Assembly: GCA_050953885.1 (NCBI GenBank)
Contig: JBMNNJ010000001.1
Location: 143,437 to 207,436, forward strand
Direction of reading: 5' to 3'
DNA length: 64,000 bases
Source of the DNA: Patescibacteria group bacterium
Lineage (GTDB): Bacteria; Patescibacteriota; Microgenomatia; 0-14-0-10-38-17
Part shown: positions 15,234-43,930 of the stretch, piece by piece
How positions within the stretch are numbered: position 1 is the stretch's first letter
Layout: each line of letters opens with the position of its first letter
Notes under the pieces: model-generated
Databases searched by the model: none
What the model was told of the DNA's origin: nothing
Seen by the model: the letters and a program-made list of their open reading frames with translations, nothing else
Program-made: the position numbers and the translations under genes

Positions 15234-15268
15234 ACCGCCAAAATTTGAATAGTTTAAGTTTTAGAAAG

Positions 15269-16555: not shown

Positions 16556-16577
16556 GCAGTTTTTAAATAAAAAATTC

Positions 16578-17663
16578 ATGAAATACGATTATTTAATCGT
16601 TGGAGCCGGTTTTTCGGGGGCAGTTTTAGCCGAAAGATTGTCTAGTGTTGGTAAAAAAGTTTTGGTGGTTGAAAAAAGAAACCATATTGGTGGAAACTGT
16701 TATGATTTTTTTGATAAAAATGGCGTTTTGGTTCATAAATATGGGCCTCATTACTTTAGAACCAATTCTGACCAAGTGGTTGAATATCTTTCCCAATTTA
16801 CCGATTGGTTGCCTCAAGAATTTAAAGTAAGGGCTTTTGTTAAAAAAGAATTATACCCTTTGCCTATAAATAGAGACACTCTTAACGCTTTTTTTAGGGT
16901 TAATTTAAAAACAGAAGAAGAAGCAGAAAAGTTTTTGGAAGAAAAAAAAGAGAAAATTAAAAACCCCCAAAACGCCGAAGAGCAAGTTTTATCCTTAGCC
17001 GGAAGAGAAATTTATGAGGCTTTTTTTAAAAACTATACTATTAAGCAATGGGGTATCCACCCCAAAAATCTTGACGCTTCGGTTACCGCCAGAATTCCCA
17101 TTAGAACCAACGCCAACGATTGTTATTTTAACGATAAATTTCAGGCAATGCCAAAAGAAGGCTACACTAAGATTTTTGAAAAAATGTTCGAGAAGTGCAA
17201 GGTTCTTTTAGAAACCGACTATCGAGAAATAAAAAATAAAATTTCTTATCAAAACATTATTTACACGGGGCCAATAGACGCTTTTTTTAATTATAAATAT
17301 GGTAAATTACCTTATAGAAGTCTGAAAATTAAATTTGAAAACTATAAAAAAGAATTTTATCAAGATTGGGCGCAAATTAACTACCCCAACGATTATAAAT
17401 TTACGAGGATTGTCGAGATTAAGCATGTTACAAAACAAAAAATACCTTGTACAACCATAAGCAAAGAATACCCAACTTGGGAAGGCGAACCATATTATCC
17501 TGTTCCCAACCCAAATAATGAAAAAATATATCAAAAATACGAAAGGGAAGCCCAAAAAATAAGAAATGTTTATTTTATCGGAAGACTGGCTCAATATAGG
17601 TATTTGAATATGGATCAGGTGATAAAAAACGCTTTAGAATTTTTTGAAGAAATGAAAAAATAA
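16578..17663 (+). CDS. glf: UDP-galactopyranose mutase
   Basis: MKYDYLIVGAGFSGAVLAERL FAD-binding fold. HIGGNCYD and GPHYFRTN motifs. 361 aa. Confidence 0.9.
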   Translation: MKYDYLIVGAGFSGAVLAERLSSVGKKVLVVEKRNHIGGNCYDFFDKNGVLVHKYGPHYFRTNSDQVVEYLSQFTDWLPQEFKVRAFVKKELYPLPINRDTLNAFFRVNLKTEEEAEKFLEEKKEKIKNPQNAEEQVLSLAGREIYEAFFKNYTIKQWGIHPKNLDASVTARIPIRTNANDCYFNDKFQAMPKEGYTKIFEKMFEKCKVLLETDYREIKNKISYQNIIYTGPIDAFFNYKYGKLPYRSLKIKFENYKKEFYQDWAQINYPNDYKFTRIVEIKHVTKQKIPCTTISKEYPTWEGEPYYPVPNPNNEKIYQKYEREAQKIRNVYFIGRLAQYRYLNMDQVIKNALEFFEEMKK

Positions 17664-17667
17664 ACGA

Positions 17668-18498
17668 ATGAGCATAATAGAAAAATTTTTATCATTGCTT
17701 TTTACATTGTTGACCAACCCCAAGATCTTAGTAGTAAAAACAATGAGGCCTTTATTTTTTTTGCCCTTTACCCTAAGGCTTAAGTTTGATGCCGTTAGCC
17801 GCCCACACTACGCTTACTGTCTTTTTCAAGCAGCAAAAGAGGCAAAGGCCTTAGGAATAAATAGAATAAGTGCTATAGAATTTGGTGTGGCTGGTGGGCA
17901 GGGAATAATGGCGATGGAAAAATTATCCAGCGAAATAGAAAAAATTACGAAGGTAAAAATTGATATTTACGGTTTTGATCTAGAAAGAGGCTTACCTAAA
18001 CCTAAAGATTTTCGTGATTTACCCTATGTTTGGAAATCGGGATTTTATAAAATGAATTACAAAAAATTATCTGAATGTTTAACTAAGGCCAAGCTTATCT
18101 TAGGAGACGTGAAAGAAACGACTCCTAAGTTTATCAAAAAGAACATTGCCCCAATAGGATTTATTGCCTTTGATTTAGATTATTATTCTTCAACAAGAGA
18201 GGCTTTTAAGATTTTTGATGCGAACAGGGAGAAATTACTGCCAAGGGTTTTTTGCTATTTTGACGACACTATTGGCCCAGATGAAGAGCTTCATTCAAGT
18301 TATACAGGAGAGCTTCTGGCTATTAAAGAATTTAACAGAAAAAATAAGAGTAAAAAGATTTGTAAAATTAACGGGCTTATTTATAAAAGGAAAGTTCCAA
18401 AAGGGTGGAATGAACAGGTCTATATATTACACTTATTTAATCACCCTTTGTATACTGAATACATTTATCCAGGTAATGATAGGCAATTAATAATTTGA
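17668..18498 (+). CDS. Hypothetical protein, possible TylF/MycF-like class I SAM methyltransferase
   Basis: IEFGVAGGQGIMAME (G-rich motif). FDLDYYSST acidic motif. Weak. Confidence 0.35.
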   Translation: MSIIEKFLSLLFTLLTNPKILVVKTMRPLFFLPFTLRLKFDAVSRPHYAYCLFQAAKEAKALGINRISAIEFGVAGGQGIMAMEKLSSEIEKITKVKIDIYGFDLERGLPKPKDFRDLPYVWKSGFYKMNYKKLSECLTKAKLILGDVKETTPKFIKKNIAPIGFIAFDLDYYSSTREAFKIFDANREKLLPRVFCYFDDTIGPDEELHSSYTGELLAIKEFNRKNKSKKICKINGLIYKRKVPKGWNEQVYILHLFNHPLYTEYIYPGNDRQLII

Positions 18499-18508
18499 AA
18501 AAATAAAA

Positions 18509-19399
18509 ATGCCTAAAAAAGAAAAAATCGCCGCCAATGTGGTTACTTACAACAGAAAAGATCTTTTAAGAGAATGCCTTAATTCTCTTTTAGCGCAGAC
18601 AAGAAAACCGAATTCAATCATCATCGTTGATAATAATTCTACTGATGGAACAAAAGAAATGGTAGAAAAAGAGTTTTTAGATAATCCGATTTTTGATTAT
18701 GTGAGACTAAACGAGAACACCGGTAGCGCGGGAGGCCAATATACCGGCATCAAAAGAGCCTACGAAAAAGGTTTTGACTGGGTTTGGTGTATGGATGATG
18801 ATGCGACACCAAAAAAACAATGTTTAAAGAATTTGCTTGTTTCTAAAGAAAGCTGTAAAAAGGCAAAAGTATTAGTTCCAGTTAAGATTAGCATAAACGG
18901 TAATGAACAAGGGTCTCATGTGGGCGTTTTTTCTAGCCCCTTCTTGCGTATTAAGCCAGCAAATAGGTCTTCCAAATTAATTGAATTTAGTTCGTTTGTT
19001 GGTCCATTATTCAGTAAAGATGTTATACGAGAAATTGGTTTACCAAACAAAGACCTATTTATTTGGCATGATGATTATGAGTATTTTTTAAGAATAAAAA
19101 CAGCCGGATTTAAAACTTATCTTGTTGATAGTGCGGTTGTCATTCATAACGACGACTATGGGAGACAAAAGAAGAAGCAATTGGGTTGGAAGAATTATTA
19201 TGGTTGGAGAAATAAATTCTATATTAAAAAGAAATATTGTAAGCCTTTTTGGTTTTATTTGTATTTAGTGGTTTTTTTATTATGGCAAACTTCTGAAATA
19301 ATTTTTGTTTATCATCAACCAAAATATATAGAAACCTTGAGTAAAGCTCTTCTTAATGGCCTAAATGGTAAGCTGGGCTTTATTGGTTTTGATATTTAA
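18509..19399 (+). CDS. GT2 glycosyltransferase (candidate galactofuranosyltransferase, next to glf)
   Basis: ANVVTYNRKDLL...IIIVDNNSTDGT...WCMDDDA (DxD). Confidence 0.7.
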   Translation: MPKKEKIAANVVTYNRKDLLRECLNSLLAQTRKPNSIIIVDNNSTDGTKEMVEKEFLDNPIFDYVRLNENTGSAGGQYTGIKRAYEKGFDWVWCMDDDATPKKQCLKNLLVSKESCKKAKVLVPVKISINGNEQGSHVGVFSSPFLRIKPANRSSKLIEFSSFVGPLFSKDVIREIGLPNKDLFIWHDDYEYFLRIKTAGFKTYLVDSAVVIHNDDYGRQKKKQLGWKNYYGWRNKFYIKKKYCKPFWFYLYLVVFLLWQTSEIIFVYHQPKYIETLSKALLNGLNGKLGFIGFDI

Positions 19400-22388
19400 C
19401 TTCATAAAGGGTGAATTTATTGATAGTGGCAAAATTTCTGTAATTTTCTTTTATGGTTTGATTTATTTCGCTATTGTTCTGATCAAAGCTTTCTTCTAAA
19501 AAAGTCCATGAAGTTATTCTGCCAGATCCTACAACATACCTAGGTCTTTGTTCCTGAATGTTTACTGCTATTTCTTTTTTCGAAAAACAAAATTTGGCAT
19601 TATCACCCTCTTGGCAGAAGAAAGGAACCCCCGTATCCCTATAAACCCAGGGAGAAGTTATCTTTAATATATTAGTAGGTCTTACTTCCGCCGCCAGCGC
19701 CGTATCGGCAGTGAAAATTAAATCTGTTTCCGATGTTTTTTTGTTTACGAACTCAACAACCTCCTGTAAGTCTTGGTAGCTATAGACAACGGCATTATCT
19801 ACTTTTTTTGTTTGAGAAATAATATTGCTAAAAAGTAGACTTGCAAAAAGCAGATAAGCAAAAGGTTTCGCTGTTTTAGCTTTTGTCAGGAATGGTGACA
19901 AAAAAGATATTACAAGGGGAAATAAAAACGACATCATGGCGGGGCTATGATTAATATCATTTGGTGAGCTACCACCGCTTAACAACCGAACATAGTAGGC
20001 AAAATAAGAAAAATTAAGAATAATAGATAGAAAAATTATATTTTCGTCTTTGATTGCTTCATTCTTTTTTTTCAAGATTTCCCCCTTCAACAGGAGAAAA
20101 AGCGCTAATAAAAATGTTAACAGGGCAATAATATGACAATAAAAGTTATAGTAAACAAATTTTTCTGTACCGACAGATATTAGTGAAAGATAAAATAAAT
20201 AAATAAATAATAAAATTAATGACGATTTTTCTAATAATCTCTTTCTAGAAATTAAAAATATTAAAAAGAAAATTAATATAGAAAAATAGCCGTTTTCTAA
20301 TACTGTGTTTGGCCAAAAAGAGGATATGAAACTATTTTTAAATAATTGAGATGTCACTGCTATATAGAGAAAAAGGCCAACGGATGAAAACATCCAGCTT
20401 AGATAAACTATGCTTTTAATTTTAAATTTTTTTGAGATCGTTTTGACAACGGGGATTGTTACAAGTAAAACAAGAGAAATTTTTTGATATAGGATTACAT
20501 CGTTCCAAACATAGGTAATTAAGTTGTTAATAGGGGATCCTAACAGATTAAATAAAAGAATTATTAAACCTGAAGACAGAAAGTAAAAAATAAAATAAAG
20601 TAATATTTTCGAAAATCGTTCTTCGTCCTTAAGATATCTAACTGCTTCTATATAAAAAAGAGAAAGAAAAATTAACAATCCGCCCTTATAAGTAAATGTA
20701 CTTATTGCAACGATAATGGACGATATAAAAAATGCCGACGGAATATTTTTTTTAAGGTATAAGAAGAATAGTGAAACAGAAGTAATTGAAAATATTTGAA
20801 AAAATACTTTATCTAATCCAAGGTTAATGGGGTTAATTATTTTGGAAAAGATTGAAGATATCGCAAGAAATAAAAAAGCACTTTTTTTATCAGTTGCTTT
20901 TTTTATTATTAGATAATTTAGGGCTAAAAAAAGAATTTGGTAAAAGACGACTAGTGTTCTTTGATTCTTTATGGTTGTTTTTAAGAAAGAAAAAAATGGT
21001 CTTATCATAAGCAAAGAACCGGGTTCTCTAAACCAAAAGTCATCATATAAATTAAGTTCTTCTTTCATCATTCTAATTGCGTATAAGGAGTGTCCCTCGT
21101 CGGAACCAATATCGGCAGTGGTTATTTGAGAAGTTTGATTAGAAATAAAAGTGAGAAAAAGCAAGGCAATAATTATCCAATTGGGCTGTTTCGCCCCCTT
21201 TTTTAGAAAAAATGAAGAAATAAAGAATAAAATTATTAAAAATCCCTCTATGATTATTTTTCGATTTAAGATAGTTAAGTTCAGACACGGTATTATGATA
21301 AGTGCTGCTAATGAAAGATAAGGCATTATTTTTATAATTCTTGTTTTTGTTTTTGTATTCTTAGAAACATAAAAGTAGACAACAGTTTCTAGCGTTAAGA
21401 AAAGAGTAGCAAGACTAGAGAAAGAGAGGCCGTTGTTTATAGACTTACTTACTTTTTTTAGAATATTTTCCCAAATCGATCCGATATTATTTTTCAGCTC
21501 CCCCTTATTGTAAACATACCTTGAATAAAGATAAGGTTGGTTGTTTTTATCAACCGAGGCAAAAACATAAAGGGCGGGGGTTTCTTCGTCGGGTTGCTTT
21601 TTGCCGGCTAATTCTACCAGATAGGTTTTGCTTTCGGATTCTTCAATTATAGGAAAACCAAAGGGGTAAAGATGGCTAGGAGCGGCTTGGTCAAAATAAT
21701 AGGTGTTTTCATAAAACCAGTTCTCGGCACCTTTTTCCTTAATGCGGAAAATGATTTCGGCCGGTTCATAATAGGCGATTTCTTCAAGGGGTTCTTCTTC
21801 GGCCAGATCGTCTTGGCCGATAGGTTGCTCTTTTTGGGTTTCCTGGTCGATTATTTCTTCCTCTATTTCCTCTTCCGGCTTTATCTCTATAATCTCCCCT
21901 TCTTCATTAAAGCCCAAAGCCTTTTCTTGAACCGAGAGTTTAACTCCCATCGTGCCCAAATTATTGGAATCGGCCGTAAATTCTTGGGAAATGAGCGTGT
22001 TTTCCACCAAAGGAACTTCTTTGGCGGCTTTAAAGCTTTTCGGGTGGCTTTCGTAAACCAGTGGCGAGCCGTACTGGAAAATAGCGTAGCCCACCAAAAA
22101 AGTTAGGATTAAGAGGAGATTGACGCCGGTGAGAAGGAGAAATTTCTTGGCGCTTTTAGAATGGGGGAAAAGATAAACTAAAAAAGCGACAATCTGACGC
22201 CAATTAATTAAAGCAACAAAAATAACCAGCCAAAAAGCAGCGCGGTTAAGTTGCGGTTGGCTAATACCTAAAGAAAACGAAAAAAAAGAGGCCAGGCGGG
22301 TAAAAAGCGTTAAAAGAAGTAAAGAGAAGGCAAGAGCATTAAAAAAGCGGCGCAGTTTTGGGAAAAAAGAAGGCTTTTTTAAGTCCAT
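19380..22388 (-). CDS. Very large (about 1000 aa) polytopic membrane protein with ArnT/PMT-like GT-C core and N-terminal acidic extension
   Basis: More than 15 TM segments. DEGHSLYAIRMM loop motif like the other GT-C proteins here. Glu-rich spacer EEEIEEEIIDQETQKEQ in the N-terminal 300 aa. Confidence 0.45.
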   Translation of the reverse strand: MDLKKPSFFPKLRRFFNALAFSLLLLTLFTRLASFFSFSLGISQPQLNRAAFWLVIFVALINWRQIVAFLVYLFPHSKSAKKFLLLTGVNLLLILTFLVGYAIFQYGSPLVYESHPKSFKAAKEVPLVENTLISQEFTADSNNLGTMGVKLSVQEKALGFNEEGEIIEIKPEEEIEEEIIDQETQKEQPIGQDDLAEEEPLEEIAYYEPAEIIFRIKEKGAENWFYENTYYFDQAAPSHLYPFGFPIIEESESKTYLVELAGKKQPDEETPALYVFASVDKNNQPYLYSRYVYNKGELKNNIGSIWENILKKVSKSINNGLSFSSLATLFLTLETVVYFYVSKNTKTKTRIIKIMPYLSLAALIIIPCLNLTILNRKIIIEGFLIILFFISSFFLKKGAKQPNWIIIALLFLTFISNQTSQITTADIGSDEGHSLYAIRMMKEELNLYDDFWFREPGSLLMIRPFFSFLKTTIKNQRTLVVFYQILFLALNYLIIKKATDKKSAFLFLAISSIFSKIINPINLGLDKVFFQIFSITSVSLFFLYLKKNIPSAFFISSIIVAISTFTYKGGLLIFLSLFYIEAVRYLKDEERFSKILLYFIFYFLSSGLIILLFNLLGSPINNLITYVWNDVILYQKISLVLLVTIPVVKTISKKFKIKSIVYLSWMFSSVGLFLYIAVTSQLFKNSFISSFWPNTVLENGYFSILIFFLIFLISRKRLLEKSSLILLFIYLFYLSLISVGTEKFVYYNFYCHIIALLTFLLALFLLLKGEILKKKNEAIKDENIIFLSIILNFSYFAYYVRLLSGGSSPNDINHSPAMMSFLFPLVISFLSPFLTKAKTAKPFAYLLFASLLFSNIISQTKKVDNAVVYSYQDLQEVVEFVNKKTSETDLIFTADTALAAEVRPTNILKITSPWVYRDTGVPFFCQEGDNAKFCFSKKEIAVNIQEQRPRYVVGSGRITSWTFLEESFDQNNSEINQTIKENYRNFATINKFTLYEVKYQNQ

Positions 22389-22454: not shown

Positions 22455-22545
22455 ACTGGTAACTAACGCAGATTCTGACTTTCGTCAGAATGACAGAAAA
22501 GTGCCAGAATGACAATTACGATTATCGTCAAAATGACGGAGCAAG
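22455..22545. repeat. Family-A hairpin repeat block abutting the 3' end of the paralog gene
   Basis: aacgcagattctgactttcgtcagaatgac... The gene stop lies at the repeat boundary. Confidence 0.8.
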
Positions 22546-23151
22546 CTCTCCCGGATCACGGATGGTGAAGGGAAGGCGGTCACTTTCCCGGCCATCATAT
22601 TTTTTAACATACAAGTCGCCTTTAAAAAAACGAGGCGGGTGGGGCTGAACGGCAACAATTTTTTCTTCCCCCCATTCTTTGATTTGAAATTCAAGGTCGT
22701 CAACAAAAACTTTTCCCGGTTGCCAAGCGGGCCCAAAATTTTTGCCTTCAATAATAATTTCCATCCCCACCATTGACCAATTGATCTCTTTTGGCTCACC
22801 CACCGTGGCCCATGAAGAAAGAATTCGGTAAATTTTTGGCTCTTCCTGTAGACGCTGGTAAAAATCAGTATAGACACGGTTAACCACCAAACCCACCAAC
22901 AAGGCGGTGAAAAAAACCGGCCAAAATTTAGCACCAACTTCCCTTGCCCGACGGGAAAAATAGTTAACCGAAAAGACTGCCAAAAAAACCGCCAGAAGCA
23001 AAAAGGTTTTTTGAGACGAGGAAATATGCTTTAAAACCAAAAATTTTTCCGTTAAAAGATATTCGGCGGGAATAATTAAAAGAAAGTAGAAAATAATGGT
23101 TTGGGCAACCACAAGCAGGTTAGGGAGAAGAAATTTTTTAAAAAAAGCCAT
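22528..23151 (-). CDS. Small membrane protein (3 N-terminal TM helices plus C-terminal domain), tandem paralog 1
   Basis: 207 aa, about 90% identical to the 23409..24032 product. Confidence 0.55.
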   Translation of the reverse strand: MAFFKKFLLPNLLVVAQTIIFYFLLIIPAEYLLTEKFLVLKHISSSQKTFLLLAVFLAVFSVNYFSRRAREVGAKFWPVFFTALLVGLVVNRVYTDFYQRLQEEPKIYRILSSWATVGEPKEINWSMVGMEIIIEGKNFGPAWQPGKVFVDDLEFQIKEWGEEKIVAVQPHPPRFFKGDLYVKKYDGRESDRLPFTIRDPGELAPSF

Positions 23152-23225: not shown

Positions 23226-23440
23226 TGGTAACTAACGCAGATTCTGACTTTCGTCAGAATGACGGTTAGAGGAAGCACCAGGATGACGACGGTCGCGCCG
23301 TCATTCCGGACTTGATCCGGAATCTGTGCTATTGCCAGAAAACGCAGATTCTGACTTTCGTCAGAATGACGGCTAGGGGAAGCGTCAGAATGACGGTTAC
23401 GATTAGCGTCAGAATGACGGAGCAAGCTCTCCCGGATCAC
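23226..23440. repeat. Family-A composite repeat block between the tandem paralogs
   Basis: Contains the H1, H2 and gtcagaatgacg modules. Confidence 0.85.
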
Positions 23441-24032
23441 GGATGGTGAAAGGGAGGCGGCTACTTTCCCGACCATTATATTTTTGAACATACAAGCCGC
23501 CTTTAAAAAAATGGGGCGGGTGGGGCTGAATAACAATAATTTTCTCTTCTCCCCATTCTTTGATTTGAAATTCAAGGCCGTCAACAAAAACTTTTCCCGG
23601 TTGCCAAGCGGGCCCAAAATTTTTACCGTCAATAATAATTTCCATTCCCACCATTGACCAATCAATCTCTTTTGGCTCACCCACCGTGGCCCATGAAGAA
23701 AGAATTCGGTAAATTTTTGGCTCTTCCTGTAGACGCTGGTAAAAATCAGTATAGACACGGTTAACCACCAAACCCACCAACAAGGCGGTGAAAAAAACCG
23801 GCCAAAATTTGGCGCCAATTTTCCTTACCCGGCGGGAAAAATAGTTAACCAAAAAGACCGTTAAAAAAACCGCCAAAAGCAAAAAAGTTTTTTGAGACGA
23901 GGGAATATGCTTTAAAACCAAAAATTTTTCCGTTAAAAGATATTCGGCAGGAATAATTAAAAGAAAGTAGAAAATAATGGTTTGGGCAACCACAAGCAGG
24001 TTGGGGAGAAGAAATTTTTTAAAAGAAAACAT
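23409..24032 (-). CDS. Small membrane protein, tandem paralog 2
   Basis: 207 aa. Same architecture and same repeat-abutted 3' end as paralog 1. Confidence 0.55.
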   Translation of the reverse strand: MFSFKKFLLPNLLVVAQTIIFYFLLIIPAEYLLTEKFLVLKHIPSSQKTFLLLAVFLTVFLVNYFSRRVRKIGAKFWPVFFTALLVGLVVNRVYTDFYQRLQEEPKIYRILSSWATVGEPKEIDWSMVGMEIIIDGKNFGPAWQPGKVFVDGLEFQIKEWGEEKIIVIQPHPPHFFKGGLYVQKYNGRESSRLPFTIRDPGELAPSF

Positions 24033-27076: not shown

Positions 27077-28206
27077 TTATCGGTGTTGATGGCAATGAAG
27101 CCAATACAGAAAAAAGAGTCGGGGTGGGTCAGTATTCTTTAGCGCTTCTTGGCTTTTGGCAAAAGTGGGCCAATAGGGAAAATCAATTTTGGGTTTATCT
27201 TCACGGCCCGGCTAACCAAAAAGTTCTTCCCCCTCCTTGTCCTTATTTTTCCTACCTTTCCTTTGGCCCCCAAAAGTTTTGGACCCAATTTGCTCTGCCG
27301 GCCAAACTTTATTCCCAAAAAGAAAAGCCCCATGCCTTTTTTTCTCCCGCTCATTATTCTCCCCGTTTTTCACCAATACCCACCGTTTTAACTATCCACG
27401 ACCTTGCCTTTTTTTACTACCCCAAAGAGTTTAAAACCCGCGATCTTTGGCAATTAAAACGCTGGACAGCTTATTCGGTTAAAAAAGCCCAAAAAATTAT
27501 TGCCGTTTCGCAAAACTCCAAAAATGATTTAATTCGTTTCTATGGCTTGCCGGAGGAAAAAATTAGCGTTGTTTACAACGGCTATGACCGGGAAAGATTT
27601 TCCCCCAAAAAAAATAAAAGAGAAATCGGCAGAGTGCGGAAAAAATACCAAACCGGCGCCGATTATCTTCTTTACGTGGGCACTCTTCAGCCCCGAAAAA
27701 ACATTATCAGCTTAATTAAAGCCTTCCCTTTTATCTTAAATCAAGATCAGCGCCGCCGCAAAACCTTGAAGCTGGTGATCGCCGGCAAAAAGGGCTGGCT
27801 TTATGAAAATCTTTTTAACACGGTACGAGAATTAAAGCTAACCGAAAAGGTTATTTTTACCGATTTTGTTGCCGACGAGGATTTGCCCTATCTTTTAAGC
27901 GGCGCCAGGCTCTTTGTTCTTCCCTCCTTGTATGAAGGCTTTGGCCTCACCGCTCTTGAGGCGATGGCCTGCGGCGCGCCGGTTTTGGTTTCCAAAAACT
28001 CTTCTTTACCGGAGGTGGTGGGAGAAGCCGGCCTTTATCTTGAAAACCCCGAGGATTTACAAGAAATTAGCCAAAAAGTGGGGCAAATTCTTGATAGCCG
28101 CGATTTGGCGGCAAGCCTTGCCAAAAAAGGCTTGGAGCAAGCCCAAAAGTTTTCTTGGGAAAAATGCGCAAAAGAAACGCTGGAAATTATTAAAAAGACA
28201 ACGTAA
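27073..28206 (+). CDS. GT4 glycosyltransferase
   Basis: [28 protein letters not shown]. Confidence 0.85.
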
Positions 28207-28439
28207 CTATTGTTCTCGCCTTAAATTTGGAGTCAGAGTTGATTATTTAAAGTTAAAAGTCAAAATTCAAAAGTCAAAAGTGCAAGTCAAAATTAAAAAG
28301 TAACGTCACCCCTGAATTAGATTCAGGATCAGGCTCTGAGCTTGATTCAGAATTTTGCGTGAAATGCCTGAAATGTATGAGACGTTTGAAACGTAAAAAC
28401 ATTAAACGATTCAGGCGATTCAAACCTCAAGCGTTTCAA

Positions 28440-28880
28440 GCATCAAGCTTTAAGGCCGATCCTGACTTTCGTCAGAATGACGGTTAGGGGAAGCGTCAGG
28501 ATGACGACAGCCGTGCCGTCATTCCGGACTTGTCCCGCCATAGCGGGATCCGCCTCAGGCAGAATCCGGAATTTATGTTATTGTAAGAAAACGCAGATCC
28601 TGACTTTCGTCAGGATGACGGTTAGGGGAAGCGTCAGGATGACGATAACCGTGCCGTCATTCCGGACTTGATCCGGAATCTGTGCTATTACCAGAAAACG
28701 CAGATTCTGACTTTCGTCAGAATGACAAAAAAAACGTCAGAATGACGATAACCGTGCCGTCATTCCGGACTTGATCCGGAATCTGTGTTATTACCAGAAA
28801 ACGCAGATCCTGACTTTCGTCAGGATGACAAAAAAAACGTTAGGATGACGATTAGTGAAAGCGTCAGGATGACGGTTACG
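28440..28880. repeat. About 4 tandem units (about 110 bp each) of the family-A composite hairpin repeat
   Basis: Each unit is gatcctgactttcgtcaggatgac-ggttaggggaagc-gtcaggatgacg-...-gtcattccggacttgatccggaatctgtgttattaccagaaaacgca. Unit 1 carries a nested ccgccatagcgggatccgcctcaggc insertion. Confidence 0.9.
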
Positions 28881-29178
28881 GAAATAATTCTGGCCACAAG
28901 TCCTTAAACTCAGGGTTACTTTTTCTAATTAATTCCAACTTCCATTCTCTTCGCCAACTTTTTAGCTGTTTTTCTCTCTTTATCGCTTCTTCTATGTTGT
29001 CAAAAACTTCAAAATAAAGAAGCTTGTTAAGATGATACTTTTTAGTAAAGCCTTCAACTAACTCCTCTTTATGTTGGCTAATCCGATGATAAAAATCGGC
29101 AGTTACTCCAATATAAAGGGTGGGGCGATCGTTACCCATAATATAAACAACAGCTTGCTTTTCCATTTTTAATTTCAA
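28876..29178 (-). CDS. GIY-YIG nuclease family protein (UPF0213/YhbQ-like)
   Basis: VYIMGNDRPTLYIGVTADFYHRISQHK (GIY...YIG). About 95 aa. Confidence 0.8.
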   Translation of the reverse strand: MKLKMEKQAVVYIMGNDRPTLYIGVTADFYHRISQHKEELVEGFTKKYHLNKLLYFEVFDNIEEAIKREKQLKSWRREWKLELIRKSNPEFKDLWPELFP

Positions 29179-29179
29179 A

Positions 29180-29500
29180 AACTAAAACGCAGATCCTGAC
29201 TTTCGTCAGGATGACGGCTACGGGAAGCGTCAGAATGACAATAACCGTGCCGTCATTCCGGACTTGATCCGCCATAGCGGGATCCGCCTCAGGCGGAATC
29301 CGGAATCTGTGTTATTATCAGAAAACGCAGATTATGACTTTCGTCAGAATGACAAAAAAGCGTCAGGATGATACTGACCGTCATCCTGAACTTGATTCAG
29401 GATCTGTTTTAAAAAAACTAAAACGCAGATCCTGACTTTCGTCAGGATGACGGTTAGGGGAAGCGCCAGAATGACAGAAAAGCGTCAGGGTAACGCCTCC
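29180..29500. repeat. Family-A composite repeat array
   Basis: H1, H2 with nested H4, and H5 modules. Confidence 0.9.
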
Positions 29501-30603
29501 AAACTTTCCAAAACCTCTCGGGCGGTTTTTTGCCAAGAAAATTTTTGCGCCTGTTGAAGACCTTTTTTTATCATTTCCCCTCTTAATTTAGGATTATTGG
29601 CTATTTTTTCCATCGCCTTCCTAATCTCCTCGGATTTCTCGGGATTAACCAAAATTCCCGCCTCTCCGGCCGCCTCGGGAAGACTGGAGACATTGCTGGT
29701 AATAACCGGCGCACCAGAGGCCATTGCTTCCAAAATCGGCAAGCCAAAGCCTTCGTAAAGCGAAGGATAAACAAAACAAAGAGCGCCGGCGTAAAGAGAA
29801 GGCAAATCCTCATCCGGCACATAACCTAAAAGTTTTAAATTTTTAGTTGCCGACTTTAAACTCTGATCGCCCCAACCTGTTTTGCCGACAATTGCTAATT
29901 GCCACCCTCTTTTATTTTCCAAACCGTCAAAAGCCTCAATTAAACGTGGCAAATTTTTGCGTGGTTCCCGCGTTCCTACCGCCAAAAAATAATCACCAAG
30001 CCCATATTTTTTCTTCACCGCTTTTATTTTCCCCTCGCCTTGGGGGCAAAAATGGCGATGATCCACTCCGGGATAAACCACTTTAATTTTCTCTTTGTTA
30101 AGATCAATTATTTTTTCCAAATCGCGCCTCGTGCTTTGAGAACTAGCAAAAACCAAATCGGCTTCTTTTTTTACCCATTTCATCCGGTTTTTATGAGCGT
30201 TAATTATCTTTTCAGGCAGAGTTTGCGGGTATTGCCAAGGAACTAAATCATGGACAACGGTAACCAACTTGGCTTTTTCTGCCGGCGGCTGGGTCCAGTC
30301 GGAAGCAAAAAAAATATCCACTTTTCCCACCAGCGTTTCCACCGGCAAAAGATGGGTTCGGTTCCAAAACCAGTCTAAGAGAGTAGGGGGGTAGGGAACA
30401 ATTTTGGCTTTTACCCGACCGGGATATTTCTTTTGTAGTTTCCTCGCAAAATTGATAAGGATTTGTTTTTGCCGCAGGGAGCCGCCAAAAAGAAGATAGC
30501 GGTTTTTTTTATCGACAACCAAAAGGTTTTCCACCAAATTTTTGGCGTAAACGCTTACCCCCGTACCGTAAACAATTTGGGAAATATCAACGGCAATGGT
30601 CAC
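29485..30603 (-). CDS. GT4 glycosyltransferase
   Basis: [36 protein letters not shown] start likely. Confidence 0.85.
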
Positions 30604-32189: not shown

Positions 32190-32813
32190 ATGAAAAAATT
32201 TTTTTTCTTAAATTGGCCACGAAAGGCTAAAATTCTTTATGGCCTGCTTTTTTTGGTCAGTCTTTTTTATCTTTTCCTGCCCGGCCCGCCTGTTCCCCAA
32301 TTAGGAGAGAATTTCCCTTTTGAAATAGGCTTTATCAGCCAAATGATGGGCGAGCCGGTGGCCACTTTCTACACCAACCAAGGGCAAGAAGAGGTGTTAT
32401 TGTTTTTCCAAAAAAAATATTCTCACAGCCCCCTTTTAAACCTTCCTCTTTTGGTTCAAAAAACCGATTATTTCCCCCAAGAGGCCTATGAACTTATAAA
32501 CGATATGCACAGCGCCAAAAATACCAATTTCTTAGTGGAATTTCGCCAACCCGGCCGAGAATCCTTGGTTATCAAAGGATATGGGGAAACTAACCCCGAA
32601 GAAATAAGTCAAAAAGACACTAAGAAAATAATTAGTTTTAAACCTGAAGACGGCAAAGAATATCATCTTCAAATAACTGTTTATCAGATTAAAACCCCAC
32701 CGGCGATAAGGGTTTTAATGCTTTGTCTTATTTTCTTAATCACGCCGGTGGTTTTTTTGGGGATAATAAAAACAGTAGGGGAGACCTGGAGGAAGCTAAG
32801 CACACGGGATTAA
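32190..32813 (+). CDS. Hypothetical membrane-anchored protein
   Basis: N-terminal and C-terminal TM segments. The 3' end runs into repeat module D. Confidence 0.4.
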   Translation: MKKFFFLNWPRKAKILYGLLFLVSLFYLFLPGPPVPQLGENFPFEIGFISQMMGEPVATFYTNQGQEEVLLFFQKKYSHSPLLNLPLLVQKTDYFPQEAYELINDMHSAKNTNFLVEFRQPGRESLVIKGYGETNPEEISQKDTKKIISFKPEDGKEYHLQITVYQIKTPPAIRVLMLCLIFLITPVVFLGIIKTVGETWRKLSTRD

Positions 32814-32867
32814 ACAGGATTTTTACAGGATAAAACAGGATAAATCTTGATGAGGTGATGAGTATAG

Positions 32868-33010
32868 ACAAATTCAAATCTCAAATCTCAAAACTCAAAA
32901 CTACAACTCAAAACTTAAATCTAAAAAAAACAACTTTAAGCTTTAAAAAGTTTTAACATTTACCATGTAGTTTTGAGTTTTAACATTTGAGTTTTAACAT
33001 TTTAGCTTGC
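32868..33010. repeat. Family-B MITE-like element (acaactcaaaac...ttttaacatttaccatgtagttttgagtttt)
   Basis: Four copies in the window: 32868-33010, 40590-40760, 50856-51015 and 54660-54745. Imperfect terminal inverted repeats caaaactcaaaac/gttttgagtttt. Confidence 0.75.
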
Positions 33011-33071: not shown

Positions 33072-34247
33072 ATGAAGCAATCTAAACCCATTTTATCAAT
33101 CATCATCGTCTCTTATAACACCAAGGAACTGTTGAAAGAATGCCTTGATTCCGTGGCTAAATCATTAGCCAGCGCTAATTTTAAAAGCAACCAAGAAAAG
33201 ATCCTGAATCAAGTTCAGAATGACGCTAATCGTAACCGTCATCCTAACTCCTCTCGCCGTCATCCTGACGATCCGCCAGCTGGCGGACAGGATCTGCCCT
33301 TGTCATTAACACAGATTCCGGATCAAGTCTGGAATGACAGTTTCCAAGTTCGTTACCCTGACTCTTCTCACCGTCATCCTGATGATCCGCCAGTTGGCGG
33401 ACAGGATCTACCCTTGGCCGAAATCATCGTTGTTGACAATAATTCCCGCGACGATTCGGTAGAAATGCTTGAAAATTTAAAATTGAAACTTGAAAATTCA
33501 ATGAAAATTGAAAATTTAAAATTGAAAATTATTATTAATAACGATAATCTTGGCTTTGCCAAGGCTAATAATCAGGGGATAAAAATAGCCGAAGGAAAAT
33601 ATGTCCTGCTTTTAAACTCCGATACTAAAATTGTTGAAGATAATTTTTTCCCAAAAATTATTAGTTTTTTGGAGAAAAATTCTGCGGTGGGAATTTTAGG
33701 ACCAAAACTAATTTGGGAAGACGGTAAAATTCAACCCTCGGGTGGTTATTTTCCTACTTTAGGTCGCCTCTTTGCCTGGGCTTTTTTCTTGGACGATTTA
33801 CCGGGCCTTTCAAAAATAATTAAAGCCTACCATCCCCACCCTAAGGACTGTCAAAAACCTCAAAGGCAAGACTGGGTTACCGGCGCCTGTTTCTGGGTGA
33901 AAAAGGAAGTTTTTGATAAAATAGGAATGCTTGACGAGGATTTTTTTATGTATGTGGAAGAACTGGAATTTTGTTTTCGCGCTAAAAAAGCGGGGTTTGA
34001 GGTGATTTATTATCCTCAGGCGAAACTTATTCATTACGGCGGGAAAAGCGGCACCGCTTTTAATACTGTTATAGGTGAATTTAAAGGCTTAAAACTTTTT
34101 TACCAGAAACACCAGCCGGCCTGGCAAAAACCGTTCCTAAATTTCCTCCTTAAGGCGGCCGCTTTTAACCGTTTTTTTTTCTTAGGAATTTTGGGGGGAA
34201 ATAAAGAAAAAAAAGAAATTTATCGAAAAGTTTTGGAAAGCAAGTAG
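33072..34247 (+). CDS. GT2 glycosyltransferase carrying an in-frame insertion of about 75 aa derived from family-A hairpin repeats
   Basis: N-terminus ILSIIIVSYNTKELL and EIIVVDNNSRDDS are split by NRNRHPNSSRRHPDDPPAGGQDLPLSLTQIPDQVWNDSFQVRYPDSSHRHPDDPPVGGQDLP. The DNA at 33196-33418 consists of the H5, H1+H3 and H2 repeat modules. Confidence 0.8.
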   Translation: MKQSKPILSIIIVSYNTKELLKECLDSVAKSLASANFKSNQEKILNQVQNDANRNRHPNSSRRHPDDPPAGGQDLPLSLTQIPDQVWNDSFQVRYPDSSHRHPDDPPVGGQDLPLAEIIVVDNNSRDDSVEMLENLKLKLENSMKIENLKLKIIINNDNLGFAKANNQGIKIAEGKYVLLLNSDTKIVEDNFFPKIISFLEKNSAVGILGPKLIWEDGKIQPSGGYFPTLGRLFAWAFFLDDLPGLSKIIKAYHPHPKDCQKPQRQDWVTGACFWVKKEVFDKIGMLDEDFFMYVEELEFCFRAKKAGFEVIYYPQAKLIHYGGKSGTAFNTVIGEFKGLKLFYQKHQPAWQKPFLNFLLKAAAFNRFFFLGILGGNKEKKEIYRKVLESK

Positions 34248-38910: not shown

Positions 38911-39317
38911 GGAAATAAGTGCGTAGAAAGAAAAACATTAGCAAAGCACACAGGATTAAACAGGATTTTTACAGGATAAAACAGAATAAATCTTGATGAG
39001 GTGATGAGTATATTAGCCTTATCGGTATAAATATATTTTACTGCTATATCAGTAAAAATTTAGAAGAAAAATAATTAACCAAAAACTTAATAAAGCTAAA
39101 AAGGAATTAAAACAGGGGCGATCGCCCCTTAAATAATTCCTTACCTGATAAAGATAAAGTTAGGCCTGTAATTTTTTCTATAGCAATTTAGTAGTTAACA
39201 ATTTATTCCGCCTGTGGCGAAACAATTTAACCATACTTATTTTATTGCGGCGCGGATTAAAAGTGCGCGCCAACCATTCGCTCATTCGTGTTAATTCGTG
39301 TCTTTTAACCATTAACA

Positions 39318-40514
39318 ATGAAACAATCGCCTGTTTTACTTTCCATCATCATCGTCTCTTATAATACCCGGGAGCTTTTGGAAAAATGCCTTGATTCCGT
39401 GATCAAATCATTAGCCGGCTCTAATCTTAAAAGCAACCAAGAAAAGATCCTGAATCAAGTTCAGGATGAGGCTAATCGCAACCGTCATTCTGACTCCTCT
39501 GGTCGTCATCCTGACCCCGCCAAGGGTGGGGCTAACCGTCATCCTGACGAAAGTCAGGATCTCTCCTTGTCATTAACACAGATTCCGGATCAAGTCCGGA
39601 ATGACAGTTTCCAAGTTCGTTACCCTGACTCTTCTCACCGTCATCCTGACGATCCGCCAGCTGGCGGACAGGATCTGCCCGCCGAAATCATCGTTGTTGA
39701 TAATAATTCCCGCGACGATTCGGTAGAAATGCTTGAAAATTTAAAATTGAAACTTAAAAATTCAATGAAAATTGAAAATTTAAAATTGAAAATTATTGTT
39801 AATAACGATAACACTGGCTTTGCCAAGGCTAATAATCAGGGGATAAAAATAGCCGAAGGAAAATATGTCCTCTTTTTGAATCCGGATACGATTGTTTTAC
39901 CCGAAACACTTCCTTTTATGCTTGAATTTATGAAAAAAAACCCCGCGGTAGGCGTGGCCACCTGTCGGGTAGAGCTTGTTGATGGAAAGCTGGACGAGGC
40001 TTGCCATCGGGGTTTTCCCACTCCCTGGAATGCCTTTTGCCATTTTTCGGGTTTGGAAAAACTTTTCCCCCATTCCCGACTTTTTGCCGGTTATTATTTA
40101 GGATATTTGGATCTTAACACCACCCACGAAATCGATAGTTGCGTCGGCGCGTTTATGTTAGTCCCTCGCCTGGTGGGCGAAAAAATCGGCTGGTGGGATG
40201 AAGATTATTTTTGGTATGGCGAGGACATTGATTTTTGTTATCGAGTGAAAAAGGCGGGTTTTAAGGTGATGTTTGTACCAAAAGTAAAAATCATCCATTA
40301 TAAAGGCGCCTCATCGGGAATTAAAAAAACCAAAAGCAAAGCCGACTTTAAAACACAAGAGAAGGCCATGCTTGCTTCAACCCAGGCGATGCGGATTTTT
40401 TACCAAAAACATTACCGGGGAAAATATCCTAAGCCCGTTGAGAAACTCGTTTTTTGGGGAATTAGTTTGCTTGAAAAAGCAAGGGTGAGAAAAATAAAAA
40501 AACAAAATGGCTAA
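39318..40514 (+). CDS. GT2 glycosyltransferase, paralog of 33072..34247, with in-frame repeat-derived insertion (about 80 aa)
   Basis: LSIIIVSYNTRELL ... NRNRHSDSSGRHPDPAKGGANRHPDESQDLSLSLTQIPDQVRNDSFQVRYPDSSHRHPDDPPAGGQDLP ... EIIVVDNNSRDDS. The DNA at 39436-39678 is hairpin repeat modules. Confidence 0.8.
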   Translation: MKQSPVLLSIIIVSYNTRELLEKCLDSVIKSLAGSNLKSNQEKILNQVQDEANRNRHSDSSGRHPDPAKGGANRHPDESQDLSLSLTQIPDQVRNDSFQVRYPDSSHRHPDDPPAGGQDLPAEIIVVDNNSRDDSVEMLENLKLKLKNSMKIENLKLKIIVNNDNTGFAKANNQGIKIAEGKYVLFLNPDTIVLPETLPFMLEFMKKNPAVGVATCRVELVDGKLDEACHRGFPTPWNAFCHFSGLEKLFPHSRLFAGYYLGYLDLNTTHEIDSCVGAFMLVPRLVGEKIGWWDEDYFWYGEDIDFCYRVKKAGFKVMFVPKVKIIHYKGASSGIKKTKSKADFKTQEKAMLASTQAMRIFYQKHYRGKYPKPVEKLVFWGISLLEKARVRKIKKQNG

Positions 40515-40759
40515 ATTGCGCAAAAATCTCAAAACGCAAATATCAAAAATAAAAACCTAATTCAAAATTCAAAAATAATAAATAAACTCAAATGTTAAAT
40601 CGCAAAACTCAAAACTACAACTCAAAACTAAAATCTAAAAAACAACTTTAAGCTTTAAAAAGTTTTAACATTTGCCATGTAGACCTGCCTTGCCGGCAGG
40701 CAGGTTTGCCATTTGCGTTTTGAGTTTTAAGCTATGGTTTTGGTCTTTGAGCTTGGTTT

Positions 40760-40960
40760 TGCTCCGCCAGCTGGCGGATTCATCAGAATGACGGCCACGA
40801 TTAGCATCATTCTGAACTTGATTCAGAATCGTTATTAATCTCTGAAGAACGCAGATCCTGACTTTCGTCAGAGCCTGTCCTGAATTTAATTCAGGAATGA
40901 CAGCTACGGGGATGATCCTGTCCGCCAGCTGGCGGATTAAATTTTAACTTTTGACTTTTT
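40760..40960. repeat. Family-A repeat block (H3 tccgccagctggcgga, H5, H1, H6 cctgaatttaattcagg)
   Basis: Seen directly. Confidence 0.85.
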
Positions 40961-40964
40961 CTGC

Positions 40965-42179
40965 ATGACACACAATACAATACATAATACCGACTCTTTA
41001 CTCCGTCTTGGCCTCGACACCCGGATGTGGGGGCCAAAGCATACTGGCATTGGCCGTTATGTGGAAAATTTGGCTGACCAGCTTATTGATCTTAAAAGCC
41101 AAAATAAATTTAAAGCAGAAATTATCCTTTTTGTGCGAAAAGAGGATTTGGCAACAATAAGAAAAAAATATGGCTCCAAAGTTAACTATAAAATTGCCGA
41201 TTTTCCCCATTACAGCCTTAAAGAACAACTTTTCTTACCTAAAATTCTTAAAGAAGCCCATTGCGATTTAGTCCATTTTCCCCATTTTAATGTCTCTCTT
41301 TTTTATCAGGCGCCCTTTGCCGTTACCATTCATGATTTAACGAAGCATTCTTTTGGCGGCCAAAAAGCCACCACCCGCTTTTTGCCGTTTTATTATCTAA
41401 AATATTTAGCTTACAAGGTGATTATTCGACAGGCAGTTAAAAAAGCCGCTATTATTTTTACCCCCAGCAATTTTGTTAAAAACCAGCTTGCTAAACAGTA
41501 CAAAGTTGACCCTTCAAAAATTATCGTTACCTATGAAGGGGTAGGGGAGAAATTTGCTCATTCGGAGAAAACTGATGAAACAACGCGAAGACAAATTCTT
41601 AGCCTATACCGCTTAAACAAGCCCTATTTACTTTATGTGGGTAATCTTTATCCTCATAAAAATATCCCCCTCCTTATAGAAGCGGTTAAAAGAGCCCGCC
41701 AAAAAATTCCCGCCCTTAATTTGGTGATTGTTTGCGGCCGTAATGTTTTTTGGGAACGGCTCAAGCAAGAAATTAAAAACTCCCAAAGCGAGTCCTTTGT
41801 CCGCCTTACCGGCTTTGTTCCTGATGAAGACTTGAAAGTTTTATATCAGGAAGCAACCGCTTTTGTTTTTCCTTCTCTCTCGGAGGGCTTTGGCCTGCCG
41901 GGACTTGAAGCGGCCAGTTTGGGTTGTCCGGTGGTCTCTTCCAACGCCACCTCTTTACCGGAAATTTACGGCTCGGCCGCTCTATATTTTAATCCCCACA
42001 ATCCCCAAGATATGGCAGAAAAAATTATTAAAATTTGCGAGGACGAAAAACTAAGGGAAAATTTAATTAAAAAAGGCTATCAACAGGTGAAGAAATATTC
42101 TTGGGAAAAAATGGCCGAAGAAACAATCGCCGGATACGAAAAGGCGGCATTAAAACACACAGGAGACAACAGGATTTAA
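40965..42179 (+). CDS. GT4 glycosyltransferase
   Basis: EGFGLPGLEAASLGCPVVSSNATSLPEIYG. Confidence 0.85.
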   Translation: MTHNTIHNTDSLLRLGLDTRMWGPKHTGIGRYVENLADQLIDLKSQNKFKAEIILFVRKEDLATIRKKYGSKVNYKIADFPHYSLKEQLFLPKILKEAHCDLVHFPHFNVSLFYQAPFAVTIHDLTKHSFGGQKATTRFLPFYYLKYLAYKVIIRQAVKKAAIIFTPSNFVKNQLAKQYKVDPSKIIVTYEGVGEKFAHSEKTDETTRRQILSLYRLNKPYLLYVGNLYPHKNIPLLIEAVKRARQKIPALNLVIVCGRNVFWERLKQEIKNSQSESFVRLTGFVPDEDLKVLYQEATAFVFPSLSEGFGLPGLEAASLGCPVVSSNATSLPEIYGSAALYFNPHNPQDMAEKIIKICEDEKLRENLIKKGYQQVKKYSWEKMAEETIAGYEKAALKHTGDNRI

Positions 42180-43637: not shown

Positions 43638-43729
43638 AAACTCTAAAAGATTAAAGCGCAAAGAGCAAAGCGCAAAACCAAGCTCAAAGACCAAAACCAG
43701 AACTTGAAAATATTTTTGAACTTTGCTCT

Positions 43730-43930
43730 GGTTTTGTCCGCCAGCTGGCGGATCGTCAGAATGACGGCTACAATTATTGTCATTCTGAACTTGTCCCGCC
43801 ATAACGGGATCCGCATCGGGCGGGATCCAGAATCAAAAACAGATTCTGACTTTCGTCAGAATGACAATGACTGTCATTTATCCGTCGGTGGGCAAATTCG
43901 TCAGAATGACAGTTACGTTCAGCCCGCAGC
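43730..43930. repeat. Family-A repeat block (H3, H5 with nested H4, H1)
   Basis: ORF 43704..43943 is a translation of this repeat. Confidence 0.85.

Follow-up and report, generated by a model that had tools for sequence, protein, structure and literature searches.

Hairpins nested in the loops of CGTC-tagged repeats of a Patescibacteria genome: a putative variant of the Ssn/SRM system

When small hairpins are found inside the loops of larger ones, the question arises of how the inner hairpins came to be there. We address it for a 64,000-nt stretch of a Patescibacteria group bacterium (assembly GCA_050953885.1, contig JBMNNJ010000001.1, positions 143,437 to 207,436, forward strand; hereafter the window), in which two types of hairpin repeat, H1 and H2, hold smaller modules that we call H3 and X. 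An earlier note on this DNA had read the nesting as repeated insertion exactly at single-stranded loop positions by an HUH (Y1) transposase, and had put forward the protein encoded at 58910 as the candidate enzyme. We find instead that the nested hairpins are an unusual variant of the known Ssn/SRM repeat system and are not evidence for the proposed transposase. The earlier note had recognised neither the identity of the repeats as CGTC-tagged repetitive extragenic palindromes (REPs) of the kind called Ssn-related motifs (SRMs) nor the neighbouring gene for an Ssn-type GIY-YIG protein.

The repeats and the gene between them

By our count the 64-kb window holds about 44 stem-loops that share a design. 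The head, which is unpaired (CGTC 36 times, TGTC 18 times), precedes a stem that is always 8 bp long and starts with AT (ATCCTGAC, ATTCTGAC, ATTCCGGA, ATTCTGAA and ATCCTGAA), and a tail of three unpaired nucleotides follows, which is CTG in 40 copies and begins with C in nearly all true repeats. H1, read on its own strand, has the 4-nt loop GAAA (22 copies) and H2 the 5-nt loop CTTGA (14 copies); four repeats contain X and four contain H3. The loops of these eight filled copies, about 18% of the repeats, are 16 and 36 nt long, beyond the 4-5 nt of CGTC repeats, and the GTC before the palindrome and the C after it are retained in empty and X-filled copies alike. The stems of H2 covary: three of their pairs show compensatory changes. 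We found 40 head-outward dimers of the form H2-spacer-H1 in the window and related contigs, and the dimers in turn make up tandem arrays.

CGTC-tagged REPs, as described by Di Nocera et al. (2013, PMC3733652), have an unpaired CGTC (or TGTC or CCTC) head at one end of the stem-loop, a stem of 8-9 bp with complementary A-T at positions one and two, a loop of 4 nt in family 1 and of 5 nt in families 2-4, and a short unpaired tail that is mostly CCA. They occur mostly as head-to-head dimers, and their superfamily includes dRS3 of Neisseria and RPE-4 and RPE-6 of Rickettsia. By that account they lack a dedicated transposase and never flank tyrosine transposase genes. Because head, stem, loop and dimer design fit, and because the same units occur in other contigs, H1 and H2 are CGTC-tagged REPs, of families CGTC-1 and CGTC-2. 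Head, stem and loop of H1 are identical to those of the unit CGTC-ATCCTGAC-GAAA-GTCAGGAT-CCAG of alphaproteobacteria-like contigs, in which the tail is CCA. The 20-mer CTGACTTTCGTCAGGATGAC was found in ten IMG/VR contigs, mostly alphaproteobacteria-like and of 66-73% GC, and 13 unrelated IMG/VR contigs of 33-63% GC have the H2 stem together with the CTTGA loop. Searched by blastn, plasmids gave no match to the alphaproteobacteria-like repeat, a full-text literature search for the repeat sequences returned unrelated primers only, and an Rfam search gave only a tRNA at the gathering threshold, with microRNA and CsrB look-alikes below it in the array.

The likely protein partner of these repeats, to judge by homology and position, is the product of the open reading frame (ORF) at 28876-29166 (Table 1). 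GIY-YIG is the only Pfam domain in this 96-aa protein, which shares 48% identity over 93 aa with the Neisseria gonorrhoeae SsnA orthologue (BLASTP 4e-33, tblastn 1e-22; the published criterion for an ssn homologue is a tblastn E value below 1e-10). Its residues Y8, Y18 and E65 align with the catalytic Y6, Y17 and E64 of SsnA. The homology was found by tblastn against Neisseria chromosomes mislabelled as plasmids, and we checked that the gonococcal gene is itself embedded in NTS repeats; NCBIfam and PDB searches with the 96-aa protein gave nothing informative.

Ssn is a 94-aa single-domain GIY-YIG nuclease whose sites are the NTS repeats of Neisseria (CGTCATTCCCGCGMAVGCGGGAATCYRG, which contains dRS3) and the SRMs (Chenal et al. 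2025, Nat Commun 16:2388, PMC11893778). Binding requires the hairpin in single-stranded form, and only one of its strands is bound; the cut falls a few nucleotides upstream. The three bases ahead of the palindrome govern cutting and the C directly after it governs binding, and SsnA still cuts when the loop is deleted, replaced or extended (text to Fig. 6b). RNA is not a substrate, and repeats lie on both sides of 42% of ssn homologues (PMC11893778). Since an SsnA homologue with the catalytic residues sits between two repeat arrays, the locus is, as far as sequence can tell, an Ssn/SRM system. The array-ssn-array arrangement, which is the published NTS-ssnA-NTS layout, is found in the window and in three other strains, in which the Ssn protein is 98-100% identical. 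The focal repeat, the X-filled H2 at 29250, lies 85 nt from the ssn start codon. The published SRM pattern, HGTCWYN(0-2)YYVSBRHN(0-5)WNVSBRGN(0-2)RNCYNB, has one match in the window (24454, minus strand; 0.06 in shuffled sequence) and eight when one letter is relaxed; it mostly fails here because the stems are more AT-rich than those of the 29 genomes behind it.

Left half-repeats (CGTCATYCTGAC, without the 3' arm) are iterated every 19-28 nt directly upstream of full H1 copies, in this candidate phyla radiation (CPR) genome and in alphaproteobacteria-like contigs alike. They may be scars of Ssn activity, because the Ssn cutting site lies directly upstream of the repeat. An Rfam match to CsrB/RsmB at 28588-28929 (28.9 bits against a gathering score of 71) arises because the half-sites fold as CGTCA-GGA-TGACG, with a GGA loop like that of CsrA-binding sites. 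GAA replaces GGA in many half-site copies, and the resemblance is probably coincidental.

The inserted modules

X was seen 21 times: the window has four copies, and a further 17 come from 15 independent metagenome contigs. In every copy it is a clean addition of 31 nt between the G and the A of CTTGA, with neither loss nor duplication; the bases 5' of it are CTTG in 20 copies and CTCG in one, and none of the 21 lies outside H2. It consists of two 16-nt mini-hairpins in tandem, TCCCGCCATAGCGGGA and TCCGCCTCAGGCGGGA, the second of which has the stem of H3. The 19-mer core occurs four times in the window (0.00 expected from shuffled sequence). The copies at 28530 and 29250 do not represent independent events, because both lie within a 175-nt direct repeat of 87% identity. 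Three variants of the H2 stem contain X, as do five classes of dimer spacer, and in four of these classes there are members without X too; X is nearly invariant, whereas the H2 stems covary. Folding of the focal H2 is predicted at -19 kcal/mol with X and -7.6 kcal/mol when empty.

The alternative left open by the earlier note, that the inserts are ancestral and the empty forms deletions, does not apply to X. Because the full CTTGA loop persists around X, and because distant genomes have the intact loop on this stem, as in the repeats that flank a Novosphingobium ssn homologue, the X-filled form is derived, and X was added to a pre-existing loop at CTTG^A. Among 185,579 GTDB species representatives the 19-mer had 14 matches, all in unrelated taxa and none with H2 flanks, against about 35 expected by chance; we take them as chance matches, and X itself as absent from these genomes. 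IMG/VR has no X either. The idea that X belongs to a single composite subfamily that was amplified whole is weakened by its presence in five spacer classes and three stem variants. The modules recur in 15 independent metagenome contigs, which rules out an assembly artefact.

Table 1. Features of the window, and of related contigs where a contig is named
Feature	Position	Strand	Structure or remark
Focal repeat, CGTC-2-type REP (H2)	29251-29309	+	CGTC-ATTCCGGA-CTTG(ATCCGCCATAGCGGGATCCGCCTCAGGCGGA)A-TCCGGAAT-CTG
X, insert in focal repeat	29267-29297	+	31 nt, two tandem mini-hairpins (ATCCGCCATAGCGGGA + TCCGCCTCAGGCGGA)
X copy	28533-28563	+	H2 with TTCCGGA stems
X copy	43794-43824	+	H2 with TTCTGAA stems; kept at orthologous site in L026 and L030
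X copy, absent from the earlier note	51318-51348	-	H2 with TCCTGAA stems; adjoins tRNA-Val
H3 in H1 REP, coding sequence of GT2 paralogue 1	33272-33287		TCCGCCAGCTGGCGGA
Empty H1 REP, GT2 paralogue 2	39537-39564	+	CGTC-ATCCTGAC-GAAA-GTCAGGAT-CTC
H3 in second H1, GT2 paralogue 1	33386-33401		
H3 in second H1, GT2 paralogue 2	39653-39668		
H3 variant in intergenic H1	48322-48337		TCCGCCGGCTGGCGGA
Two H3 bracketing a 142-nt REP block in a family-B element	40763-40936	+	B-left, H3, block, H3, B-right
H3 with no surrounding hairpin, AT-rich family-B DNA	54744-54759		B-left, H3, B-right; absent from orthologous L017 spacer
ssn homologue	28876-29166	-	96 aa, single-domain GIY-YIG; Pfam GIY-YIG 3.6e-14
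REP/SRM array 3' of ssn	28458-28874	+	four units of H1, half-site(s) and H2; first H2 with X
REP/SRM array 5' of ssn	29190-29484	+	three units; first H2 with X (focal repeat)
Left half-repeat examples	28491-28514, 28629-28652, 29225-29248; L040 7425-7490; L042 439-500		
H2 outer stems with long loops, unrelated metagenome contigs	L056-L079 (IMG/VR); L047 3665 and 7297; L051 2029		
Family-B elements	32860-33010, 40585-40760, 50850-51010, 54640-54790, 43650-43735		
Family-B insert, 35 nt	40683-40717	+	GC-rich hairpin ACCTGCC..GGCAGGT directly after GTAG, + TTTGCCATTTGCG
Second copy of family-B insert	50924-50958		
Y1 (HUH) transposase unit	58823-59700	-	gene 58910-59584; Pfam Y1_Tnp 1.7e-9; HFH and Y motifs

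The H3 16-mer (TCCGCCAGCTGGCGGA) occurs nine times in the window, with 0.00 expected from shuffled sequence, and 11 copies were found elsewhere. It substitutes for ACT(T), that is, two stem bases and one or two loop bases. Every H3-filled H1 has the junction CTG-H3-T(T)CGTCAG, with the AC of the 5' arm lost and a bulged outer stem of 6 bp, and one symmetric variant occurs (L026, 1717-1750). H3 is also present at half-H1 junctions, where only one half of H1 remains. Its left flank is GATYCTG or GTTTTG and its right flank TCGTCAG.. or TTGAC/TTAAA, and all four combinations are present.

Two of the genes involved are the paralogous GT2 glycosyltransferase ORFs at 33072-34247 and 39318-40514, which contain in-frame REP arrays at 33196-33412 and 39442-39680. 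These arrays are made of H2, half-sites, H1 and H1 with H3, and encode a low-complexity insert of about 80 aa (..NRHPDDPPAGGQDLP..) between the first strand and helix and the rest of the GT2 domain; the Pfam match begins only at profile position 23-27. They resemble the RPE insertions in coding sequences of Rickettsia.

Family-B elements are imperfect inverted repeats of about 150 nt that are AT-rich, have a CAAAAC-rich left and a GTTTTG-rich right arm, and lie directly upstream of genes. Two of them contain a 35-nt insert in which TTTGCCAT is duplicated. As the earlier note had said, the CCTGCC..GGCAGG hairpin of this insert is present in these two copies and absent at the matching point of those at 32960 and 54720; the insert follows CATGTAG, about 30 nt off the centre of the element, and is not in a loop. 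The GTAG that precedes it is the tag of the other REP superfamily, and a similar hairpin (CTGCCTATCCGGCAGGCAG) lies at 9114-9132. The intergenic region 40440-41050 (509 nt, with a family-B element, two H3 and REP units) is replaced in L026 (3080-3380), a strain of 91-93% identity, by an unrelated GC-rich sequence of 198 nt.

The nested sequences quoted in the earlier note are thus in place, far above chance, except that the string given for both 28530 and 43785 fits the latter only, the stems at 28530 being TTCCGGA. The H3 within H1 of the GT2 gene, and the intact hairpin of its paralogue, are also as described. A defined insertion point shared by filled and empty repeats was borne out for X, at CTTG^A in 21 of 21 copies. 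H3 does sit inside H1 as claimed, but not cleanly in the loop, and the rule of exact loop insertion was too broad: it holds for X and fails for H3, which costs stem bases and also occurs in AT-rich DNA and at half-hairpin junctions, and for the family-B insert.

Orthologous sites of related strains, too, can be filled or empty. We compared them in metagenome contigs that are 91-97% identical to orthologous parts of the window; L018-L032 derive from digester or sludge samples. The focal unit of the window consists of H2 with X, whereas L018 has this H2 empty, L019 an H3 in the H1 of the unit, and L020 other stem variants; at 26.5 kb, H1 and H2 are both empty in the window versus H1 with H3 and H2 with X in L021. 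Such differences between filled and empty orthologous sites always come with further changes in the unit, for instance in half-site copy number or spacer. The module maps around ssn differ among all four strains (window, L018, L019 and L020), and this turnover, which affects the number and the type of units, looks local and very fast.

To see how far loop filling extends, we made a gapped search of IMG/VR for the H2 outer stem (ATTCCGGA/TCCGGAAT) around a loop of 15-45 nt. It yielded 25 contigs in which this stem encloses a self-complementary loop of 16-35 nt. Most have an 18-nt inner hairpin such as GCGACGCGAAGCGTCGAG, with covarying inner stems and the triloops GAA, GTA and GCA. In L051 a 31-nt module of two mini-hairpins splits the CTTGA loop, and in L047 a 9-nt loop is kept, with 20, 30 or 33 nt of GCGWAGCC units at its 3' end. 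Because unrelated contigs carry mini-hairpins in the same outer stem, the filling of loops by one to three GC-rich mini-hairpins is recurrent in this class of repeats, with fillers specific to lineages. The GCGAAGC-type inner hairpin carries the motif of d(GCGAAGC), a very stable mini-hairpin of DNA, and its use in loops is a hint of selection on the stability of single-stranded DNA.

The enzyme proposed by the earlier note did not stand up. The Y1 gene, which is IS200-like, is the only one in 64 kb and single-copy, and it has flanking hairpins of its own. These are two copies, in direct orientation, of a 55-nt compound hairpin (TTTTTCCCGAGGTTGCAAGCTAATCAACTCCGGGGGTTGATTAGGCAGGAACCTCGGGA) of which the window has no other copy and which bears no relation to H1, H2, H3 or X. 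The unit of about 865 nt is absent from the IleS-MraZ spacer of the 92%-identical relative L017, and is therefore a recent insertion here or a recent loss there. Its protein scores 50.8 bits against the NCBIfam RAYT model (cutoff 80), has no PDB sequence match and gave uninformative PHROGs results; tblastn found no Y1 gene in 45 kb of repeat-rich relatives. A link between this gene and the nested hairpins is unsupported. What survives of the earlier interpretation is the derived state, the fixed insertion point and the single-strand hairpin biology; the enzyme does not, and the loop rule was overstated.

Some other features of the window deserve mention. The octamer GCGATCGC, known as cyanobacterial HIP1, occurs five times (2952, 39118, 42266, 49735 and 51723) against 0.37 expected, and the copy at 39114-39129 is an extended palindrome, AGGGGCGATCGCCCCT. 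This HIP1-like octamer and a GC content of 41% would suit a Nostoc genome with SDR elements, but such an origin is rejected: the best named relatives of the IleS protein are Candidatus Shapirobacteria, Microgenomates and Patescibacteria, at 57-67% identity, GlyRS is of the dimeric type, and plasmids hold no match. By the IleS marker, the host is thus a probable Microgenomates-like CPR bacterium; the DNA also corresponds to part of JGI metagenome contig Ga0591955_0000299. GATC is part of most repeat modules (CAGATCC, GGGATCC, GGCGGATCG). The block 8000-22000, of 30-34% GC against 39-45% elsewhere, holds glycosyltransferase and polysaccharide genes, is nearly free of REPs, and may be a horizontal acquisition. 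Three 207-aa paralogues without a Pfam family (22528-23151, 23409-24032 on the minus strand, and 32190-32813 on the plus strand), two of them 91% identical and the third at 23%, resemble membrane proteins. Dense REP arrays lie interspersed with them at 22.4-24.5 kb, which recalls the NTS around surface-protein genes of Neisseria.

How the modules may have spread

We think it fairly likely that this is an Ssn/SRM system with loop passengers that spread along with the repeats and not by transposition of their own. By homology, H1 and H2 would be bound as single-stranded hairpins by the nuclease of 28876-29166, which, as in its studied relatives, would cut a few bases upstream of the CGTC head. 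It would read head and stem, as well as the C that follows the stem, and ignore the loop; because it needs head, stem and tail and not the loop, the latter would be free to take up extra DNA. X, with two 16-nt GC-rich mini-hairpins, and H3, with one, would then be passengers that also stabilise the folding of weak AT-rich stems considerably. The filled forms, we infer, would spread and be reshuffled with the repeats by copy-to-copy transfer, through template switching or recombination, which Ssn nicks in single-stranded DNA could possibly stimulate. The constant junctions, the restriction of X to H2, the shared H3 junction and the patchwork of differences between strains all suggest spread of this kind.

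Several observations weigh against it. Transfer that kept the stems of the recipient would need endpoints within a 5-nt loop, given that X is found in three stem variants and five spacer classes, and a near-invariant X on covarying H2 stems fits recent, repeated entry. The H3-type hairpin turns up in three settings, namely H1 loops, unrelated AT-rich DNA and, as the second half of X, H2 loops, so that homologous exchange alone is insufficient. Only one of about 44 REPs fits the published SRM pattern. Nor does Ssn explain the first insertion, because its cut lies upstream of the repeat and not in the loop. It is conceivable, if on the whole unlikely, that the 16-nt mini-hairpin (TCCGCC-loop-GGCGGA) is a self-propagating parasite of the repeats, single as H3 and doubled as X, which enters the exposed single-stranded loops of Ssn-recognised hairpins, and sometimes other YYTG sites, without duplication. 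If so, the GCGAAGC-type fillers of L047 and L051 would arise by the same process, the mini-hairpin would be among the smallest mobile DNA known, and it would offer a handle on the change and multiplication of the CGTC/SRM repeats, which have no known transposase.

Spread by copy-to-copy transfer must also be set against the possibility that X and H3 are tiny mobile elements which a single-stranded DNA transposase, HUH/Y1 or other, inserts 3' of a short loop motif, without target duplication and at each site independently. We regard this as doubtful. The clean, duplication-free entry of X 3' of CTTG is what such an enzyme would produce, and YYTG (CCTG, TCTG, TTTG or CTTG) precedes about 17 of 20 H3 and all X on the plus strand. 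The occurrence of a nearly invariant X on variable stems, in three stem variants and in five dimer classes of which four have empty members, speaks for it too, as do the lineage-specific loop modules of about 30 nt that recur in unrelated contigs; the two hairpins of X also resemble the left and right end hairpins of IS200/IS605 elements. Yet no X copy of 21 lies outside H2, and no source copy or alternative target was seen; the H3 junctions are unclean, with stem bases lost; and the sole Y1 gene in 64 kb has unrelated flanks, is single-copy, and is missing from a close relative, as Y1 genes are from the 45 kb of repeat-rich relatives. A length of 16-31 nt is also far below that of known IS200/IS605 derivatives. 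According to PMC3733652, finally, CGTC REPs never flank genes for tyrosine transposases.

Two further explanations address parts of the data. H3 could be a recombination site and not an insert, so that site-specific exchange, or exchange at very short homology, at the 16-bp palindrome would give mosaic junctions. The presence of all four flank combinations would follow, and the arrangement at 40763-40936, compared with that at 54744, is the product expected when a circle with one H3 integrates at an H3 site. We nevertheless consider this quite improbable: no recombinase gene was recognised in the part of the ORFs of the window that was scanned, X is left unaccounted for, truncation of repeats could give the same pattern, and the sample is small (nine copies in the window and 11 elsewhere). 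Very improbable, in our judgement, is that the composite hairpins are selected RNA-level elements, such as terminators, mRNA stabilisers or protein-sponge RNAs, with the loop hairpins as functional additions. Terminator-like sites are indeed in excess at 28000-29700 (11 against 2.3 expected), the units fold far better than shuffles (z of -5.6 to -6.6), the H2 stems covary, and the GGA-loop hairpins give the weak CsrB-like match. Against this, no Rfam family reaches threshold, arrays have one orientation beside genes on both strands, repeats of this kind lie in frame within coding sequence, SsnA is inactive on RNA, and close strains differ freely in array content.

Significance and comparison with known systems

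CGTC REPs, among them dRS3, RPE-4, RPE-6 and many alphaproteobacterial repeats, were long held to have no dedicated enzyme, and the tie to Ssn dates only from 2025. Our results extend the pairing of CGTC REPs with Ssn to a CPR bacterium whose repeats the published pattern misses, and surveys that rely on this pattern therefore probably undercount the Ssn/SRM system. In the loop-filled copies, the loop tolerance that SsnA shows in vitro has a counterpart in nature, and these copies could serve as ready-made test substrates. Around a nearly invariant ssn, the arrays vary in each strain sampled, which indicates fast local turnover.

In behaviour only, X and H3 are like the small dispersed repeats SDR1-8 of Nostoc (Elhai et al. 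2008, Genome Res 18:1484). These are said to be hairpin-forming units of 21-27 nt within minitransposons and short tandem repeats, mutually nested, with SDR5 entering HIP1 between its third and fourth bases; they have reportedly been proposed as the smallest mobile elements, with an RNA intermediate. No nuclease is known to be associated with them. If the loop modules were mobile, the question of the smallest mobile element raised by these units would become testable in a second, unrelated system. Unlike the present repeats, the Nostoc units are cyanobacterial and are reported as confined to Nostocaceae (PMC5861425 and PMC4390886).

With REPIN/RAYT systems and the 'peel and paste' transposition of IS200/IS605 the locus shares hairpins recognised as single-stranded DNA, duplication-free insertion beside a short motif (for X, 3' of a fixed one, as in IS200/IS605) and a Y1 gene in the window. 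That gene, however, is not flanked by H1, H2, X or H3, and its flanks have no similarity to X; the repeats are tagged with CGTC and not GTAG, all 21 X copies sit in one type of target, and X and H3 are several-fold smaller than any known derivative. Similar in form are GTAG-3, GTAG-14 and the loop-length variants of Escherichia coli REPs, in which, as here, short- and long-loop members occur within one family and, in GTAG-3 and GTAG-14, the long loops, whose termini are complementary and rich in GC, form an inner hairpin (of up to 27 bp in Bradyrhizobium). GTAG-3 and GTAG-14 are the only REPs for which complex self-complementary loops are given (PMC3733652). They belong to the other superfamily, with a GTAG head and an association with RAYT genes, and are described as loop variants and not as insertions; neither a double-hairpin module nor presence and absence between strains is reported there.

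The CGTC REPs of PMC3733652 match ours in head, stem length, AT start, loop length of 4 or 5 nt and 3-nt tail, in head-to-head and mostly heterodimeric arrangement, in intragenic copies, and in having no adjacent tyrosine transposase; H1 is letter for letter an alphaproteobacterial CGTC-1 unit. The window differs in the tail (CTG against CCA), in large clusters, which are usual here and rare there, in loops of 16 and 36 nt, and in a host phylum outside the five listed. From the Ssn/SRM system of PMC11893778, it differs in a CPR/Microgenomates-like host, a group without mention in that paper. Its stems are AT-rich, so that a single repeat of about 44 fits the published pattern; two REP types, with 4-nt and 5-nt loops, form heterodimers in long tandem arrays, about 18% of the repeats have GC-rich loop hairpins of 16-31 nt, and two genes contain repeats in frame. 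Shared with that system are a single-domain GIY-YIG protein of 94-96 aa, 48% identical and with the same catalytic Y/Y/E; a gene with hairpin repeats on either side, in which the head is CGTC and the palindrome begins with AT and is directly followed by C; recognition for which the loop is dispensable; and repeats that cluster near genes for surface polysaccharides and membrane proteins.

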